Below are positions 8,858 through 17,356 of a DNA stretch of 64,000 bases, piece by piece. Location of the stretch: positions 1,152,001-1,216,000 of the forward strand of contig OY969559.1 of the NCBI GenBank assembly GCA_963701075.1. Reading direction: 5' to 3'. Below the pieces are notes generated by a model. The model searched no databases and was not told the origin of the DNA. It worked only from the letters and a program-made list of their open reading frames with translations. Each line of letters begins with the position of its first letter. Positions within the stretch are counted from its first letter, which is position 1. Position numbers and translations under genes: made by a program. Source of the stretch: an uncultured Nitrososphaerota archaeon. Lineage in GTDB: Archaea > Thermoproteota > Nitrososphaeria > Nitrososphaerales > Nitrosopumilaceae.

Positions 8858-9430
8858 ATGTTGAATTTCTCAAAGGATGATACTGGACAGGATCTATCTC
8901 ATCCTCTTTTTAGAATCAAGACTCTGTCATCGAAGATAGAGCAAAAAATTATACAAAAAGACAAGGGAGCAGAAGATGGTTTTATCGAGACACTCTCAGT
9001 TGAGGAATTGAAGGATTTGAGACAGGTGATTCTTGCATCTGAATACTTGCTTACAAAATATCAGGACAAAAAAGACCTCAAGGCATTCTTGGAGGAGTTT
9101 ATTGGCATAATCATGCATACTACAAACTCAGTCAACGTCCTAAGGGACGAACTGGAAGACTTGGTAATATCAGCAGAGGTTGCCTTACAGCAGATTCATA
9201 CATTGCATGATGATGTAACCAGGAACCTAACCTTTGGGCACGCGTCTCAGACAAGGCTAGATGACTTTAGGTTATCACGTGTACCTGCCGCGCCTGTACT
9301 GGCAGCGCCTGTCCATGTATCTCCTGCTGTAACACCTGCCGTAACGCAGCCAAGTTCAATTAATTTAACAAATCCTACTAGACGAGTTCACACCAGTGAT
9401 TACCTAACAAGAACCGAAGTGGAAATCTAG
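8858..9430 (+). CDS. Hypothetical protein in the cdv cluster (helical, Pro/Ala-rich tail)
   Basis: 190-aa ORF between the cdvB-like gene and cdvC. Confidence 0.7.
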   Translation: MLNFSKDDTGQDLSHPLFRIKTLSSKIEQKIIQKDKGAEDGFIETLSVEELKDLRQVILASEYLLTKYQDKKDLKAFLEEFIGIIMHTTNSVNVLRDELEDLVISAEVALQQIHTLHDDVTRNLTFGHASQTRLDDFRLSRVPAAPVLAAPVHVSPAVTPAVTQPSSINLTNPTRRVHTSDYLTRTEVEI

Positions 9431-9441
9431 TTGGTAATATT

Positions 9442-10626
9442 ATGAGCCTAGCACCGCAAGAGTTAGAAAATAGCGCAAGTAGATTTGCTGCGGAAGCCAT
9501 AAAGTCTTGACTCACAAGGCGCACGTGGTATGGCAATCTCTAACTACCAGAGGGCAGTAGAATCGCTCACAAAGCTAATTCACCTATATCCTGAAAACAA
9601 ACTAAATAGAGTATACCAAGAACGTGTCGCTGCATATCAGAATCGTATCAAAGCATTACAATTGACTAATGTGGATATAGAGCCAGCTGTTGATCCAAAA
9701 GCAACCCCTGAAGAGCAGAAACAGTCCCTGACAAAAAATGAACTTGATTCATTGATAATGAAGGAAAAGCCAAACGTCAGCTGGGCAGAAGTAATTGGTC
9801 TTGATGATGCAAAAAACGCACTCCGAGAATCTATTGTTTATCCTGCTAAACGTCCTGACCTATTTCCACTTGGATGGCCAAGAGGAATACTGCTTTATGG
9901 TCCTCCTGGATGTGGCAAGACAGTACTTGCAGCAGCTACTGCAAGCGAGATTGATGGATATTTCATTAATGTAGATGCTGCCTCTATGATGAGCAAGTGG
10001 TTGGGTGAGGCAGAGAAGAATGTTTCAAAGCTATTCACCATGGCAAGAGGAATGGCTGAAAAAGAAGGGTTACCAGTAATATTGTTTATCGATGAAGTGG
10101 ACTCACTTCTTGGAAACCGCAATAGTGAGATAGGAGGAGAGATTAGAGTCAAAAATCAGTTTTTGACCGAGATGGACGGCATCAACGGAAAAGGAAAAGA
10201 TCTCAACTCTATGTCATAGGGGCTACAAACAAACCATGGAGCCTTGACTGGCCGTTTCTTAGGAGATTTACAAAAAGAGTCTATGTGTCGCTTCCAACGC
10301 TAGAAGCAAGAGTTAGTCTTTTTGAGCTTTATACCGCACCACTTCAAAAGGATGAAAAATCAAAACCGTCCGAGCTTGCAAAACTGGCAGACGGATACAG
10401 CGCAAGTGACATCAAAGACATTTGCCAGTCTGCACAGTTAATGGTTGTAAATGACTTGTTCCACTCGCCGGCATTCCAAGACCCTGTAGTGGGAGAAGCG
10501 CCACCGCAACCACGCCAGATCACCATGTCTGACTTTAAGGAAATAATCACAAGACGAAAGCCAAGTGTAAGCATGGAAATGATTCGCGCCTATTACAAGT
10601 GGAGCGATCAATTCAAGGCCCTGTAG
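9442..10626 (+). CDS. cdvC: CdvC/Vps4 AAA+ ATPase (two frameshifts, ~9505 and ~10206)
   Basis: MIT domain MSLAPQELENSASRFAAEAIK..., Walker A GPPGCGKT, Walker B FIDEVD, Vps4-like C-terminus. Confidence 0.92.
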
Positions 10627-10716
10627 ATTCAAAAATCTACCAGTATTATCTTTGAAACTAGAACGCAAAAATAAAATTTAGATCGACATAAAACTTAAAT
10701 TCGTATTATTCTGCAG

Positions 10717-11889
10717 TTGCTGAGGGTCTCAGAAATTCCAACAAAGAAAGCCAAACATGTAAACAAGTTTGGTAAGCTTGTTTTGGAAGATGGCACTGTT
10801 TTTGATGGAATGGGTTTTGGTTATTCTACAACTGTTTCAGGCGAGGCTGTCTTCAATACAGGCATGTCAGGTTATACTGAAGCGCTAACTGACCCGTCAT
10901 ACAGTGGACAGATTCTGACTCTTACTTATCCATTGGTAGGAAATTATGGCATTCCAAATGTTTTGGAAAAAGATGAAGATGGCATCAAAAAATATATCGA
11001 ATCTGACAAGATACAGGTGCGGGCACTTGTGGTCCACGAATTATCCATTACTGCAAGCCACTGGAATCTTGCCATGACGCTAGATGAATGGCTATACAAC
11101 GAAAAGATACCTGGAATTTCAGGAATTGATACAAGGGCACTTACGACAAAACTTAGGACACAGGGCGTCATGATGGCAATACTTGCCGTATCTGAAAAAG
11201 AGATTGACGAACAAGCGCTCAAAGCACAACTTGCATCTGCCAAAAAATACAACGATGATGAATTCATGACTGTGGTATCCACCAAGGAACCCAAGACATA
11301 TGGTACCGGACGAGAGTCGATCGTGGTAGTAGACACGGGTGTAAAAAATGCAATACTGCGCAATGTCATAAAACTTGGATACAAAGTAATCTGCGTTCCG
11401 TGGAACTATTCTGTGGAAAAGATTCTCTCCTACGAACCAAAGGGCGTTGTGATAGCAAGCGGTCCTGGGGATCCAATAAAATGCGGTGAGACCATGGACA
11501 CTGCAAAAGCTTTGATTGAAAAAAATATTCCAACGCTTGGAATATGCCTTGGTGCGCAGATTCTAGGTCTTGCTGGCGGTGCAAGCACATACAAGCTAAA
11601 GTATGGCCATCGGGGACAGAACAAGTCATGCATTGACTTGGATACAAAACAAGTCTACGTGACAAGCCAGAACCATGGATATTGTCTTGACCCAGATTCT
11701 CTAAAGAACACTGATTTCAAATTATGGTTTACAAATACTGATGACAAAACGGTAGAGGGAATACGACACAAAGAAAAAAAGATTCTTGCAGTACAATTTC
11801 ATCCAGAAGCGTCACCTGGTCCTTTTGATTGTATGTTTATTTTTGAAGAGCTTAAACGACTCATAGGGGAGGACAATGCCAAAAGATGA
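10717..11889 (+). CDS. carA: Carbamoyl-phosphate synthase small subunit
   Basis: LEDGT..G, FNTGMSGY.E.LTDPSY.GQ, GICLG, QFHPE. Confidence 0.97.
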   Translation: MLRVSEIPTKKAKHVNKFGKLVLEDGTVFDGMGFGYSTTVSGEAVFNTGMSGYTEALTDPSYSGQILTLTYPLVGNYGIPNVLEKDEDGIKKYIESDKIQVRALVVHELSITASHWNLAMTLDEWLYNEKIPGISGIDTRALTTKLRTQGVMMAILAVSEKEIDEQALKAQLASAKKYNDDEFMTVVSTKEPKTYGTGRESIVVVDTGVKNAILRNVIKLGYKVICVPWNYSVEKILSYEPKGVVIASGPGDPIKCGETMDTAKALIEKNIPTLGICLGAQILGLAGGASTYKLKYGHRGQNKSCIDLDTKQVYVTSQNHGYCLDPDSLKNTDFKLWFTNTDDKTVEGIRHKEKKILAVQFHPEASPGPFDCMFIFEELKRLIGEDNAKR

Positions 11890-14800
11890 GTCGCTAAAAA
11901 AAATATTGGTTCTTGGCAGTGGGGCAATTAAAATCGGAGAAGCAGGCGAAAGTCACAAAATGACCGCCAGTTCGACTACTCCGGTAGCCAATGTCTCAAG
12001 GCCATAAAGGAAGAAGGGATACAAAGCATTCTTGTAAATCCAAACATTGCAACAATTCAAACTGACACAAGGTTTGCAGACAAGGTGTATTCAATTCCGG
12101 TAAACCCCCAGTACGTAGAGTCCATCATAGAATCTGAAAGGCCAGACGGCCTGATGCTTGGATTCGGTGGACAGACTGCTCTGAACTGTGGAGTAAAACT
12201 CGAAGAGATGGGCGTGCTAAAAAAATATGGGGTGCGGGTGCTGGGTACACAGGTGGCAGGGATTCGGGCAACCGAAGACAGGCAACTCTTCAAGGATGCC
12301 ATGATAGAGTGCGGCGTTCCAGTACTGAAAAGTAAGACAGTTTACAACTTTGAGCAGGCAAAAGAGATTGCAAATGAGCTTGGCTATCCTGTAATCATAC
12401 GTGTTGCATACACATTGGGCGGAAAGGGTGGAGGAGTGGCACACAATGAAATCGAGTGACACGAAATAGTGACAAGGGGCCTTAACGCAAGTCTTGTGGG
12501 GCAGGTACTAATTGAGGAGTATGTGGGGCACTGGAAGCAGATAGAGTATGAGGTCATGGCAGACTATGATGGTAACAATGTAATAATTTGTAACATGGAA
12601 AATGTTCTTTCAATGAGGGTGCATACTGGTGACAATATAGTTGTGGCACCATCGCAGACACTTGATAATTTAGAGTACCAGATGTTAAGGTCTGCAGCAC
12701 TAAAGGCAGCACGTCATGTTGGTATAGTTGGTGAGTGCAACATACAGTTTGCACTAGATGCAGATTCTGACAAGTATGTTGCAATAGAGATGAATCCAAG
12801 ACTCTCGCGCTCGTCTGCACTTGCAAGCAAGGCCACTGGATACCCAATAGCATACATGGCAGCAAAGATTGGGATGGGTCACACACTTCCTGAGCTTGTA
12901 AATCGTATAACAAAAACCACCACTGCGTGCTTTGAGCCCTCACTTGACTATATCGTATGCAAGCATCCGCGATGGGACTTTGGCAAGTTTGAGCTTGCAA
13001 ACCGCAGCCTTGGACCTACAATGAAATCAGTAGGCGAGGTAATGGCAGTGGGAACATGTTTTGAAGAATCATTTCAAAAAGCAATTAGGATGCTTGAGAT
13101 TGGAAACGACGGACTTGTTGCAAACCGAACCCCTGACAAGATTTACGATGTCGAGGATCTGGAAGACAAGCTGCAAAAGCCAGATGACCATATACTATAC
13201 CACGTAGCAGCAGCACTGCGGCAGGGAATCTCAGTTGAGAGAATCTACAAGCTTTCTGCAATAGACCCGTGGTTTGTAGAAAAAATTAAAAACATTGTAG
13301 AGACTGAGAAAAATCTCAAGGAATCAAATCTTGATAAAAATACATTGAGTGCTGCAAAAAAACTTGGATTCTCAGACAAGCAGATTGGAAGGCTGACAGG
13401 AAAAGACGACATGGAAGTTCGAAAGATGAGAAAAGAGTCTGGAATTGTACCTGTAGTAAAACGAATAGACACCCTTGCAGCAGAGTGGCCTGCCCAGACA
13501 AACTATCTATACCTTACATATGGTGGAAAAACAAATGACTTTGAGGTAAACTCTGATAATGAAAAGATAGCGGTGCTAGGCGCAGGGCCATACCGCATTG
13601 GGAGCAGCGTAGAGTTTGACTGGGGAACAGTAAACATGGTTTGGGGGCTCAAGGAAAATGGCGTAAAGGAGGTCTCTGTGATAAACTGCAACCCCGAAAC
13701 CGTATCGACTGACTATGATATCTGTGACAGGTTGTACTTTGAAGAGTTGACACTTGAAAGGGTTCTTGATATTGCAGAATTTGAAAAGTTGACAGGAATT
13801 GTGACTGCAGTAGGGGGCCAGACTGCAAACAACTTGACACCGAAACTTGCAAAACATGGAATTAAGATAATTGGAACGTCATACGAGGATATCGACAGGG
13901 CAGAAAACAGGTCTCACTTTAGCAAGGTGCTTGATAATCTTCACATAAGGCAGCCCCCATGGCAGGCGTTCTCAAGTTTGTCTGATGCTAAAAAGTTTGC
14001 ACTAAAGGTGGGCTATCCGGTTCTTGTAAGGCCATCTTATGTGCTAAGCGGCGCTGCAATGAAAGTTGTCTGGTCAGAAGAACAACTCAAAAAATATCTG
14101 GACGAAGCAGCCAATGTCTCGCCAGACTATCCTGTCGTTATTACAAAGTTCATGCTAAACTCACTTGAGGCCGAAGTGGATGGAGTCTCAGATGGAAAAA
14201 ATGTTGTAATCGGTGCAGTAATAGAACACATTGAAGGGGCAGGTGTGCATTCTGGAGATTCCATGATGTGCATCCCTCCATGGAGCCTTTCCAACAAGGT
14301 CATTGAGACAATACTTGATTATACGAAAAAAATTGCAAGTGCGTTTACAATAAAGGGTCCGTTTAATCTGCAATTTCTTATCAACTCTGATCAGGTCTTT
14401 GTAATTGAGCTTAACATCAGGGCATCGCGCTCCATGCCGTTTGTGTCAAAATTTGTCAGGATGAATCTTATCAGTCTTGCAGCACGGGCAGTACTTGGAA
14501 AACCTCTTCCGGCAATTCCACATGACAGGTGGCGCAAGATACACAACTATGGAATCAAGGTACCGCAGTTTTCATTTATGCAACTTGAAGGTGCTGATGT
14601 GATACTTGGAGTGGAGATGCAGTCAACAGGGGAAGCTGCATGCTTTGGCGAAAGCTTCTATGATGCACTAGCAAAGGGGTTAATCTCTGTAGGGTACTCT
14701 TTGCCAAAGGAAGGATCAGTATTGATAACAGCGGGAGGCTCTGAGAACAAGGAGAAACTCTTGCAGACTGCACTCTTGCTCAAAAGTCTTGGCTACAAGA

Positions 14801-15138
14801 TTTTAGCAACAGAGCACACTGCAGAATTTTTGTCAGACAAGAGGATAGGGGATGTGCAAATTGTATACAAGATTAGCGAGCCCCAGCGCAAGCCCAACAT
14901 TGCAGACATGCTGTACCAGCACAAGATTGATTTTATCATAAACGTGCCAAGCACATCGACACTTGAAAAATATGTCGGCATGTTGTACGACGAGTACCAG
15001 ATAAGAAGAAAGGCAGTAGAGCTTGGCATACCTGTGCTGATAACAACGGAACTGGCAGACTCTTTTGCAAAGACACTAGAGTGGTTGAGGCACAACGAGA
15101 CCACCAAAAAGCCACTAGAGCCGTACGAGACAATTTGA
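11876..15138 (+). CDS. carB: Carbamoyl-phosphate synthase large subunit: exon 1 11876-11950, putative intron 11951-11970, exon 2 11971-15138 (in-frame TGA at 12457-12459 is a likely read error)
   Basis: ILVLGSGAIKIGEAGE|FDYSGSQ, EMNPRLSRSSALASKATG, second ATP-grasp, MGS-like domain. Confidence 0.95.
11951..11970 (+). other. Putative 20-nt bulge-helix-bulge (BHB/BHL) mRNA intron in carB
   Basis: GGCG-AA^A-GTCA-CAAAA-TGAC-CGCC-AG^T; removal gives GGC GAA TTC GAC (GEFD) in frame. Confidence 0.82.
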
Positions 15139-15195
15139 TAGATATCTTCTACCGATACATTGAATGAAAAAATCTTGAAGTCTTTGAAAGAATCT

Positions 15196-16212
15196 TTATC
15201 TTTGGATTTCAATGCCAAGGCTTTTTCTTAATACCTTGGAAAGATTTCTTATTGTCACGCTGCTAATGCCTGATGCCCGTGCGAGTTTATCTTGAGTGAA
15301 CTTTTCCTCATTTAGTAATCCTGACATGTAGATGGCAGTTGCTGCAAGTGAGACGGGGTTCTTGCCATTGGTTATTCCCTTTTCTTTTGCCCTGTAAAGT
15401 ATGTCAAGTGCATCCCTTTTTGCCTTCTCGCTTGAACCAATAGCTGTTCCTATCTTTGATACAAATTCTGATGGATCAAAGGCATCTATTTGCAAGCCAA
15501 GCGTATTGACAAATATTCTATAGTTCCTTGAAAGATCCTTGACTGTTATGTTTCCTTCATGTGCAATATCGCTCAGGGTCCTTGGAACATTTGATTCCCT
15601 GCAGGCTATGCATAGTGCGGAAAGAATCATTCCTTTTATGGTTCTTCCCCTGACTATGTTTTTTGTAAGTGCCTTTCTGTATAGGTAGGCGGCTCGCTCA
15701 ATTACTGCATCAGAGATCTCAAGCTTTGACTGTATTGATGACATTACCGCAAACGCCGCACGCAGGTTTCGCTCAGCAGAGTTTGTCTTGCTTCTGCTAT
15801 CCCATGTTCTCAACCTGTTGAATGTATACTTCATGTAACCTGAGATGGAGTTTCCTGCCGCATCTCTGTTTGCGTTTCCAATTATTGTTGAGAGTCCCTT
15901 GTCATGGATGGAAAGCGTTGACGCCATTCCTGTCCTTGTATTATTGTTATAATCTTCTAGCGTAAACGATCTTTGTTCAGGCGTTGTATCCTCCACCTTG
16001 TCTACTAGTACAGCACCACAACTTGCGCACAAGATCTCACCGCGTACGGCATCCGTAATTAGAGGGCCGTGAGATTCTCTGCCCTGAACGCACGCGTCCT
16101 TGGCGCTTTTTTGAACTATACATTTCTGTCTGGATTTATTATTAACTACCAAATGTATATCTACTATAGTTATGAAAGTATTTAAACATACAAGTAAGGG
16201 ACTGGATATCAA
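15196..16212 (-). CDS. tfb: Transcription initiation factor IIB paralogue (true start uncertain, probably near 16120)
   Basis: GEILCASCG Zn ribbon, HDKGLST.I, two cyclin repeats, GKNP..LAA. Confidence 0.93.
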   Translation of the reverse strand: MISSPLLVCLNTFITIVDIHLVVNNKSRQKCIVQKSAKDACVQGRESHGPLITDAVRGEILCASCGAVLVDKVEDTTPEQRSFTLEDYNNNTRTGMASTLSIHDKGLSTIIGNANRDAAGNSISGYMKYTFNRLRTWDSRSKTNSAERNLRAAFAVMSSIQSKLEISDAVIERAAYLYRKALTKNIVRGRTIKGMILSALCIACRESNVPRTLSDIAHEGNITVKDLSRNYRIFVNTLGLQIDAFDPSEFVSKIGTAIGSSEKAKRDALDILYRAKEKGITNGKNPVSLAATAIYMSGLLNEEKFTQDKLARASGISSVTIRNLSKVLRKSLGIEIQR

Positions 16213-16231
16213 GTAAAGGCGTGGTAAGTAT

Positions 16232-16852
16232 CTATTGGTACCACTGGTGTGTTATTGCCTGTATCTCTCCAAACGCCTTTGCCAAATTGTTTGACTTGGC
16301 ATCTTCTGCTCCATTCATTCCCTCTGCAAGTATTCCTTTTACCTCGCTGAACCCCATGAATTGAAACTCTGCATTTGAAAGGGAGACTGCATGCTCCCAT
16401 GCCTTCATGGGGCCAGTGCTGTACGAGCCTCCGCTAGAAACGATTGTCAGCGCTTTTTTTCCTTTCATTAATCCTGAATACTTTCCATCCTGTGCATTCC
16501 ATGTGTGACCCTTTAGCATGATGGAATCAAACCATGCCTTGACTACCGCAGGCATGGAAAAGTTGAACATTGGATATGCAAGAACTATGATATCAGATGA
16601 TTTTACCTGCTCTATCATTTTATCCATCTTGGACAGGAGACTCTTTTGTTCTGCTGATATGTCCTGCTTTAGGTAATCGCGCTGGATATAGGCCATGAGG
16701 TTGTCAGCCAAGAATAGGTCTGGAACGTCTTTGGCAAGATCAAGCTCTTCAATTGACGAGTTTTTTACCTTAGACTTGAACTCTGCTAAAACCTTTCTAG
16801 TGTTAGAGCGCTCTCCGCGAGGAATATATTTTACAACAAGTGTCTTGGTCAG
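16232..16852 (-). CDS. FMN-dependent NAD(P)H azoreductase/quinone reductase (flavodoxin-2 fold)
   Basis: YPMFNFSMPAVVKAWFD and SSGG; the frame extends upstream of the listed ORF (TKTLVVKYIPRGERSNTR) to ~16852, after an AGGTGA. Confidence 0.88.
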   Translation of the reverse strand: MTKTLVVKYIPRGERSNTRKVLAEFKSKVKNSSIEELDLAKDVPDLFLADNLMAYIQRDYLKQDISAEQKSLLSKMDKMIEQVKSSDIIVLAYPMFNFSMPAVVKAWFDSIMLKGHTWNAQDGKYSGLMKGKKALTIVSSGGSYSTGPMKAWEHAVSLSNAEFQFMGFSEVKGILAEGMNGAEDAKSNNLAKAFGEIQAITHQWYQ

Positions 16853-16945
16853 CTGTTTTCACCTAAATTTTCTATACTAGATATAGAAAGGTAAGTATTT
16901 AAATCAGCGAGTAACTACCTGTAAATTAACTGAGGCTGTGGTAAG

Positions 16946-17356
16946 TTGAAAGAAGAAGAGTGTAGAATACTTGCAGATAGCATGAAAGCGTGTCCCATTG
17001 ATAATACATTTGCAATAATTGGTAAAAAGTTTACAGTACACATTTTAAGAAACATGACTAGACTGAATCAGACCAGGTTCAACGAGTTTCTTGATACCAT
17101 TGATGGCATAAACCCAAAGACCCTGTCGGCTAGACTTCGTGAGATGGGAAGAAACGGGCTCATTGAGAGAAAGATCTATCCTGGCACTCCTGTGCGAATA
17201 GAGTATTCCATGACTGACAAGGGCAAGGCACTAACCCCAATTTTGGAACAGATGGCGGCATTTTCTATGCAGTATTGTGCAAAAGACGTCTTCAAGGACG
17301 GCAAGCCTCGCGCATTCAAGCAAGTGTTTGAAAAATCTCCAAGTATTGTAAAATAA
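16946..17356 (+). CDS. HxlR family winged-helix regulator
   Basis: CPID...IIGKKF..IL, RFNE, LSARLREM...P.RIEYS.T.KG; divergent from the azoreductase. Confidence 0.92.
   Translation: MKEEECRILADSMKACPIDNTFAIIGKKFTVHILRNMTRLNQTRFNEFLDTIDGINPKTLSARLREMGRNGLIERKIYPGTPVRIEYSMTDKGKALTPILEQMAAFSMQYCAKDVFKDGKPRAFKQVFEKSPSIVK

Follow-up and report, generated by a model that had tools for sequence, protein, structure and literature searches.

The window analysed here, a stretch of 64,000 nucleotides (nt) from the genome of an uncultured Nitrososphaerota archaeon, is identical base for base to G000:C1:1152001-1216000 of the assembly and carries, on the plus strand, the carbamoyl-phosphate synthase genes carA and carB, the second of which is interrupted by a candidate 20-nt intron of the tRNA type. 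The gene of the glutamine amidotransferase small subunit, carA (10717-11889), is present in the list of open reading frames (ORFs) and scores 438.8 bits against NCBIfam TIGR01368, where the cut-off is 307; its end overlaps the start of carB by 14 nt. carB starts with ATG at 11876, and its exon 1 (11876-11950) encodes 25 codons up to ...KIGEAGE, the N-termini of intronless orthologs matching this translation up to the junction. The 20 nt at 11951-11970 shift the carB frame by +2, and FDYSGSQCLK... is read from 11971. Exon 2 (11971-15138) extends from FDYSGSQ to the stop codon and matches positions 25-184 and 192-1051 of the TIGR01369 profile, with 1113.7 bits for this remainder of carB. The unspliced exon-1 frame reaches a stop codon at 12005-12007 (ORF 11876-12007). 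These positions agree with the first-pass annotation, which had read from the letters a start at 11876, 25 codons to IGEAGE, a 20-nt break before FDYSGSQ and an unspliced stop at about 12006. Downstream of its last preceding stop, the exon-2 frame has no ATG, GTG or TTG before the GTG at 12085, so that the conserved stretch beginning with FDYSG cannot be started independently. No second carB was found in the genome. A separate N-terminal peptide followed by an independently started CarB was considered and rejected, because the exon-2 frame has no start before 12085 and the intervening stretch shows conservation at the protein level.

Intronless orthologs read KIGEAGE/FDYSGSQ unbroken, exactly where exons 1 and 2 of the window meet, and the 20 nt are without counterpart in them at this point. 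In the minimum-energy fold of 11927-11997 (-17 kcal/mol), the exon bases GGCG (11945-11948) pair with CGCC near the 3' end of the insert (11965-11968) to form a central 4-bp helix; the three nucleotides AAA (11949-11951) are bulged out, and the body of the insert forms a hairpin (11952-11964), in which GTCA (11952-11955) and TGAC (11961-11964) enclose the loop CAAAA. This central helix, the bulge and the hairpin had all been drawn in the first-pass annotation and are recovered here. On the 3' side the triplet AGT (11969-11971) lies in an asymmetric internal loop and is partly paired in the fold of the window, and across relatives there is no pairing directly 3' of the triplet. Further out, a 7-bp helix joins ATCGGAG (11933-11939) to CTCCGGT (11979-11985). 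The motif thus lacks the helix directly after the 3' triplet, which bears out the earlier description of it as a relaxed BHL form: it fits the relaxed HBh'/BHL class of bulge-helix-bulge (BHB) elements, not the strict class. Strict elements need a second 3-nt bulge on the opposite strand with an outer helix behind it, a part that may be disrupted in relaxed ones.

This architecture was compared among 149 loci with the exon pattern, which comprise 106 distinct sequences, 90 with the insert and 16 without it. All 90 insert variants can be laid out with zero spare nucleotides as four exon bases, a 3-nt bulge, a hairpin, a 4-nt return strand and three nucleotides. The exon strand of the central helix is GGCG, except for two variants with GGTG, and these carry CACC and CACT on the opposite strand, a two-sided change in the helix. 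The return strand pairs in all 90 variants, with all four pairs formed in 76 and three of the four in 14. The 5' bulge is AAA in 72 variants and AGA in 18, the hairpin has three to eight consecutive pairs in every one of them, and the 3' triplet is AAT in 70, AGT in 12 and ATT in eight, its last T being the first base of exon 2. The inserts are 17 (one variant), 18 (one), 19 (one), 20 (21), 21 (33), 22 (14), 23 (one), 24 (six), 26 (eight), 30 (one) or 32 nt (three) long. All three frame classes are present among these lengths, and each of the 41 variants with a length divisible by three contains an in-frame stop codon; hence no single frameshift rule rescues these carB genes.

Covariation was measured on an alignment of 66 rows (A1). 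The proposed pairs hold in 95.2% of its cells, versus 23-47% when the partners are slid by one to three columns, and the covariation score was reached by none of 500 shuffles. Two-sided changes occur at three of the five aligned hairpin pairs, one of which is A-U in 43 rows and G-C in the other 23. The outer helix is paired in 98.5% of the cells and shows zero covariation, since both of its strands are coding. The exon strands were compared at another level: in the intron-bearing flank variants the codons GGA (67 of 70), GAA (68 of 70), GGC (68 of 70), TAC (67 of 70) and TCC (60 of 70) are fixed, and all five vary freely in the 16 intronless flank variants, which are a non-random sample. Such fixation of synonymous sites in helix-forming exon bases would lend indirect support to the exon strands of the predicted structure.

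The cut sites, after 11950 and after 11970, are predicted on the basis that, in each bulge, cleavage by the endonuclease follows the second base. The same register is seen, in our reading, in the tRNA-Lys(CUU) gene of this genome, where a 16-nt intron called by ARAGORN lies in a helix-bulge-helix-bulge arrangement. If both cuts were displaced by one or two bases, most variants would still encode the same protein, but the eight ATT variants would have Asp in place of Glu; by our reading only the canonical register retains Glu in these. Removal at AA^A and AG^T, as originally suggested, would join GEAGE to FDYSG, matching the intronless orthologs.

The insert is widespread among relatives. A DNA search of 40 relatives led to 19 loci of the same genus, all with gapless matches, and each of the 19 carries an insert of 20-22 nt at the same place, with indels confined to the hairpin loop. 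In named public genomes, covered by a protein-anchored search, the insert stands directly before TTC or TTT GAC at 78 of 80 loci; record titles of intron-bearing genomes include Nitrosotalea, Nitrosopumilus salarius BD31, Nitrosopumilus sp. b1, Nitrosotenuis chungbukensis MY2, Nitrosarchaeum, Cenarchaeum, Nitrososphaera, Nitrosocosmicus and a metagenome-assembled genome (MAG) of Nitrosomirales. The order was surveyed with two pattern searches, both over the same 401 genomes. The carB motif in any form (gap of 0-30 nt) was matched in 330 of them, and an insert of 10-35 nt in 223, in nine of 20 families (167 of the 267 high-quality genomes). By family, the insert is present in 71 of 112 genomes of f1, one of one in f2, f3, f8 and f11, nine of nine in f4, 40 of 97 in f10, two of four in f13 and 96 of 111 in f15. 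By subtraction, carB is uninterrupted in about 116 genomes of the order. These include all pattern-matching genomes of f7 (11), f9 (7), f12 (9), f14 (14), f16 (1) and f18 (2), as well as 35 of the 46 genomes of genus g19 within f1; five families of the order match neither pattern. Outside the order the insert pattern was matched in none of 341 genomes of the phylum, where the exon motif may differ. Four genomes flagged as unpublished (G011, G012, G019 and G283) enter these tallies, and one row of A1 (L022) comes from G012; no claim is based on them alone. The first-pass annotation had proposed looking in relatives for an insertion at this site with compensatory pairing, and had tied its reading to such an insertion and to the lack of another intact carB; the 223 genomes of the order supply the former, and carB is single.

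Two contigs with the intron-bearing carB pattern, L210 and L235, belong to MAGs titled Candidatus Iainarchaeum and Caulobacter sp., and are most likely mis-binned thaumarchaeal DNA. At G055:C141:557-585, an intronless carB has flanks with the exact synonymous-site signature of the intron-bearing genes, which would fit a recent precise loss of the intron.

Uninterrupted junctions with the flank signature of the intron-bearing lineage were also sought in the metagenome collection, and 20 contigs were obtained. Three of them are 94-99% identical to intron-bearing genomes and miss exactly the intron. L286 aligns with L168 over 2993 nt with 22 mismatches, the missing 32-nt intron and one 1-nt indel; L290 aligns with L199 over 1713 nt with 32 mismatches, the missing 25-nt intron and a 2-nt difference in run length; and L294 aligns with L250 over 5364 nt with 298 mismatches, the missing 27-nt intron and two 1-nt indels. 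The records of L168 and L199 are titled Nitrosocosmicus, and L168 is a contig of G271 from genus g15, where every genome listed by both pattern searches has the insert. L286 contains three co-directional genes, including an intact carB of 1093 residues. The three contigs may have been assembled from cDNA of spliced mRNA, or from the DNA of strains in which the intron loss is very recent; in either case they confirm the predicted intron boundaries. Two of the three belong to a single data set, and the data set of the third has an adjacent number.

The genome encodes the enzymes that would be needed for splicing. There are two EndA paralogs of 179 and 224 amino acids, each with the N-terminal and catalytic domains (PF02778 and PF01974), and one RtcB (591 bits). 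The closest chains to the 179-residue EndA are 3p1z_B, 3ajv_B, 2cv8_A and 2zyz_B, which we take to be crenarchaeal enzymes. ARAGORN found 43 tRNA genes, about a dozen of them with introns. Since two paralogs are present, the EndA of this genome is probably of the (alpha-beta)2 type, for which relaxed motifs are substrates. The relevant passages of a published study describe this type as conserved in Thaumarchaeota, and relaxed motifs as cut only by the (alpha-beta)2 and epsilon2 types (PMC5829648); the tRNAscan-SE 2.0 paper notes many non-canonical introns in thaumarchaeal tRNA genes (PMC8450103).

Taken together, these observations make it very likely, in our judgment, that 11951-11970 is a tRNA-type intron of the relaxed HBh'/BHL class in the carB pre-mRNA. 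Its constant site, variable length and compensatory changes, the intronless junctions, the single carB and the presence of EndA and RtcB all agree with the relaxed BHB intron put forward in the first-pass annotation. In the proposed mechanism, the last exon-1 bases GGCG of the carB RNA would pair with CGCC near the 3' end of the intron, the AAA would bulge out, and the intron body would fold into a short hairpin. EndA would then make two cuts, one between the second and third nucleotides of the 5' bulge and one at the position symmetric to it on the 3' side, and RtcB would join the exons, bringing ...GEAGE directly before FDYSG.... The intron would be old, inherited across the ammonia-oxidising archaea and precisely lost many times.

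Several observations weigh against this interpretation. A search of RNA sequencing runs with carA-carB listed none. The fold of the window taken by itself has a z-score of -2.17, and six of 200 shuffles folded as well; such single-sequence evidence is modest and only suggestive. The 3' splice site has no clean 3-nt bulge, and the nearest outer helix, which does not covary, is 7 nt away. In 14 of the 90 variants, the outermost pair of the central helix is a G-A mismatch. An additional convergent gene on the intronless contig L294 fits DNA at least as well as cDNA. Finally, exon 2 contains an in-frame TGA at 12457-12459, in place of a conserved Leu codon. It is unique to this assembly: the 19 same-genus loci all have CTN or TTR here, and there is no indel near it relative to the two closest relatives. 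It is probably a sequencing or base-call error rather than a strain-specific nonsense mutation; if real, carB would be dead in this strain whatever the intron does, and the nature of the intron would be unchanged. This codon had been overlooked in the first reading of the sequence.

The interruption might alternatively be dealt with during translation, the ribosome hopping over the insert or shifting frame, as in phage T4 gene 60, without any cutting of the RNA. Hairpins are part of known bypass signals, and the insert does place a stable hairpin just after the break. However, inserts of 17-32 nt in three frame classes exclude a fixed +1 or -1 shift, no landing codon that matches the take-off codon (GAA or GAG) stands before TTC or TTT, where the insert ends with CAA, CAG, TAA, AAA, AAG, CAT, TAT and others, and the codon following take-off is AGT or AGC, not a stop. 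Moreover, the 4-bp helix with its 3-nt bulge and the pairing of the exon with the 3' end of the intron have no role in bypass, yet are an exact EndA substrate, and we regard translational bypass as very improbable. Another alternative is removal of the insert from the RNA by another endonuclease and ligase, or by a small self-cleaving element, instead of EndA and RtcB, and the departure of the 3' site from the canonical bulge would be accommodated by it. This too seems quite improbable given that the 5' half is a textbook helix-bulge-helix and that the same geometry is present in tRNA introns of the same genome; for a ribozyme the insert is too short and its loop too variable, and an Rfam search of 11700-12200 with E values up to 10 gave no match.

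Defects of the assembly could suggest that the insert arose as an artefact of sequencing or assembly, or that carB is a decaying pseudogene here, and such defects do exist, as the TGA at 12457 and a 1-nt deletion in the nearby gene cdvC/vps4 illustrate. Against this, the insert recurs with covarying structure in 223 of 401 independent genomes, the remaining carB retains its score of 1113.7 bits against TIGR01369, carA-carB is free of indels relative to the two closest relatives, and the genome has only the one carB. As an explanation of the insert, an artefact is excluded, and we give practically no credence to the combined alternative of artefact or pseudogene. The deletion in cdvC/vps4 (9530-10626) splits that gene into two ORFs, since the window lacks, between 10206 and 10207, a base that is present in G006 (GATCTCAA-CTCTATG here versus GATCTCAAGCTCTATG in G006). 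It is probably a base-call error, and suggests that the assembly carries single-base errors. The earlier remark that the insert is unlike such single-base defects is well illustrated by this case. A further candidate, a homing-endonuclease cassette, was rejected, because no endonuclease gene is located nearby: in the six ORFs that flank the gene (8858-17356), a Pfam scan detected no endonuclease family. The families detected among them are AAA/Vps4 (cdvC/vps4, in two pieces), TFB/TFIIB, a flavodoxin-like protein and an HxlR regulator, and one ORF is without a match.

A genome-wide scan of G000:C1 for a BHB motif combined with a frame break produced 411 raw and ten filtered candidates. The scan required 80 open codons upstream and consequently missed the carB intron, where exon 1 has 25 codons. 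The ten further sites may all be due to chance or frameshift errors; they are doubtful, because the assembly is error-prone and the filter weak.

If a tRNA-type intron is indeed present, production of the enzyme most likely requires prior splicing of the carB mRNA. Because carB is single and exon 2 has no independent start, RNA splicing would be needed for carbamoyl-phosphate synthase and hence for the synthesis of arginine and pyrimidines, a dependence that the first-pass annotation had suggested. That splicing also regulates the enzyme is speculation. Kept throughout the history of the ammonia-oxidising archaea, in several hundred species and without a homing endonuclease, and placed just 25 codons from the start of carB, whose translation is coupled to that of carA, the intron could be more than a passive relic: its removal could act as a checkpoint gating the amount of carbamoyl-phosphate synthase and tie arginine and pyrimidine synthesis to RNA-processing capacity or growth state. 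We consider such a checkpoint unlikely. Structural conservation is to be expected in any case, as alleles of an essential gene that cannot be spliced would be lethal. If the checkpoint existed, it would have been lost along with the intron in some lineages, most of genus g19 among them.

The intron also has consequences for annotation. In public records, exon 1 has been called as a free-standing protein of 26-75 residues (61 clusters, P0001-P0061), named "hypothetical protein" wherever it is named, bar one, with titles including Thaumarchaeota, Nitrososphaeraceae and Nitrosocosmicus; annotation pipelines thus do not recognise the intron. Metabolic reconstructions may score carB as truncated or broken, the remainder having no start until well downstream.

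Introns of the tRNA type in protein-coding genes are very rare in the archaeal literature. The one in the crenarchaeal cbf5 gene is reportedly the subject of papers by Watanabe (2002) and Yoshinari (2006). In the passages of a later study that treat its evolution, this intron of Desulfurococcales and Sulfolobales is described as having a relaxed motif, an ancestral gain, lineage-specific losses and a history of mis-annotation, and Nitrosopumilus maritimus and Cenarchaeum symbiosum are scored as lacking it (Yokobori 2009, PMC2738675). A BHB intron has also been reported in the 5' untranslated region of the HVO_1309 mRNA of Haloferax volcanii, in a paper whose corresponding passage names the crenarchaeal cbf5 intron as the only other mRNA intron reported (Schwarz 2020, PMC7714728). 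Among the more recent sources, the relevant part of a 2025 paper on endonuclease structure cites only cbf5 papers in this connection (PMC12397907), and archaeal mRNA introns go unmentioned in the corresponding sections of a 2026 review of non-canonical splicing (PMC13149111). The first-pass annotation had left prior reports to be looked up; within openly searchable full texts, no report of a carB intron, or of an intron in any thaumarchaeal protein gene, was found. carB would therefore be a new gene, and its hosts a new lineage, for BHB introns in mRNA, a kind known from cbf5; the carB intron has a very wide distribution and no associated endonuclease gene. It would add a core metabolic gene of marine and soil ammonia-oxidising archaea to the cbf5 and Haloferax cases, and would offer both a short natural substrate for relaxed-motif recognition by a heteromeric endonuclease at moderate temperature and a well-sampled example of how an ancient intron is retained and, many times over, precisely lost.

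The cbf5 intron is among the closest parallels. As far as the published passages on cbf5 go, both are short BHB-type introns inside a protein-coding gene, with an often relaxed motif and a host with hetero-oligomeric EndA; both appear to be inherited from an ancestor and lost in some lineages, and in both cases annotation missed the intron or took it for a frameshift. In contrast, carB encodes a central metabolic enzyme and cbf5 an RNA-modifying one, the hosts are mesophilic ammonia oxidisers of the Nitrososphaerales instead of hyperthermophilic Crenarchaeota, and splicing of cbf5 has been demonstrated experimentally, whereas that of carB is predicted. HVO_1309, on the account available in its report, shares with carB an mRNA as the substrate of the tRNA splicing endonuclease, but its intron is located in an untranslated leader, leaves the reading frame intact, and belongs to a euryarchaeon. 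Finally, thaumarchaeal tRNA introns, both those noted in the tRNAscan-SE 2.0 paper (PMC8450103) and those in the tRNAs of this genome, resemble the carB intron in helix-bulge geometry and presumed enzymes, and several of those found here are similar to it in length (13-19 nt). The carB intron differs from them in residing in an mRNA, where the exon strands of its helices also serve as codons with constrained synonymous sites.

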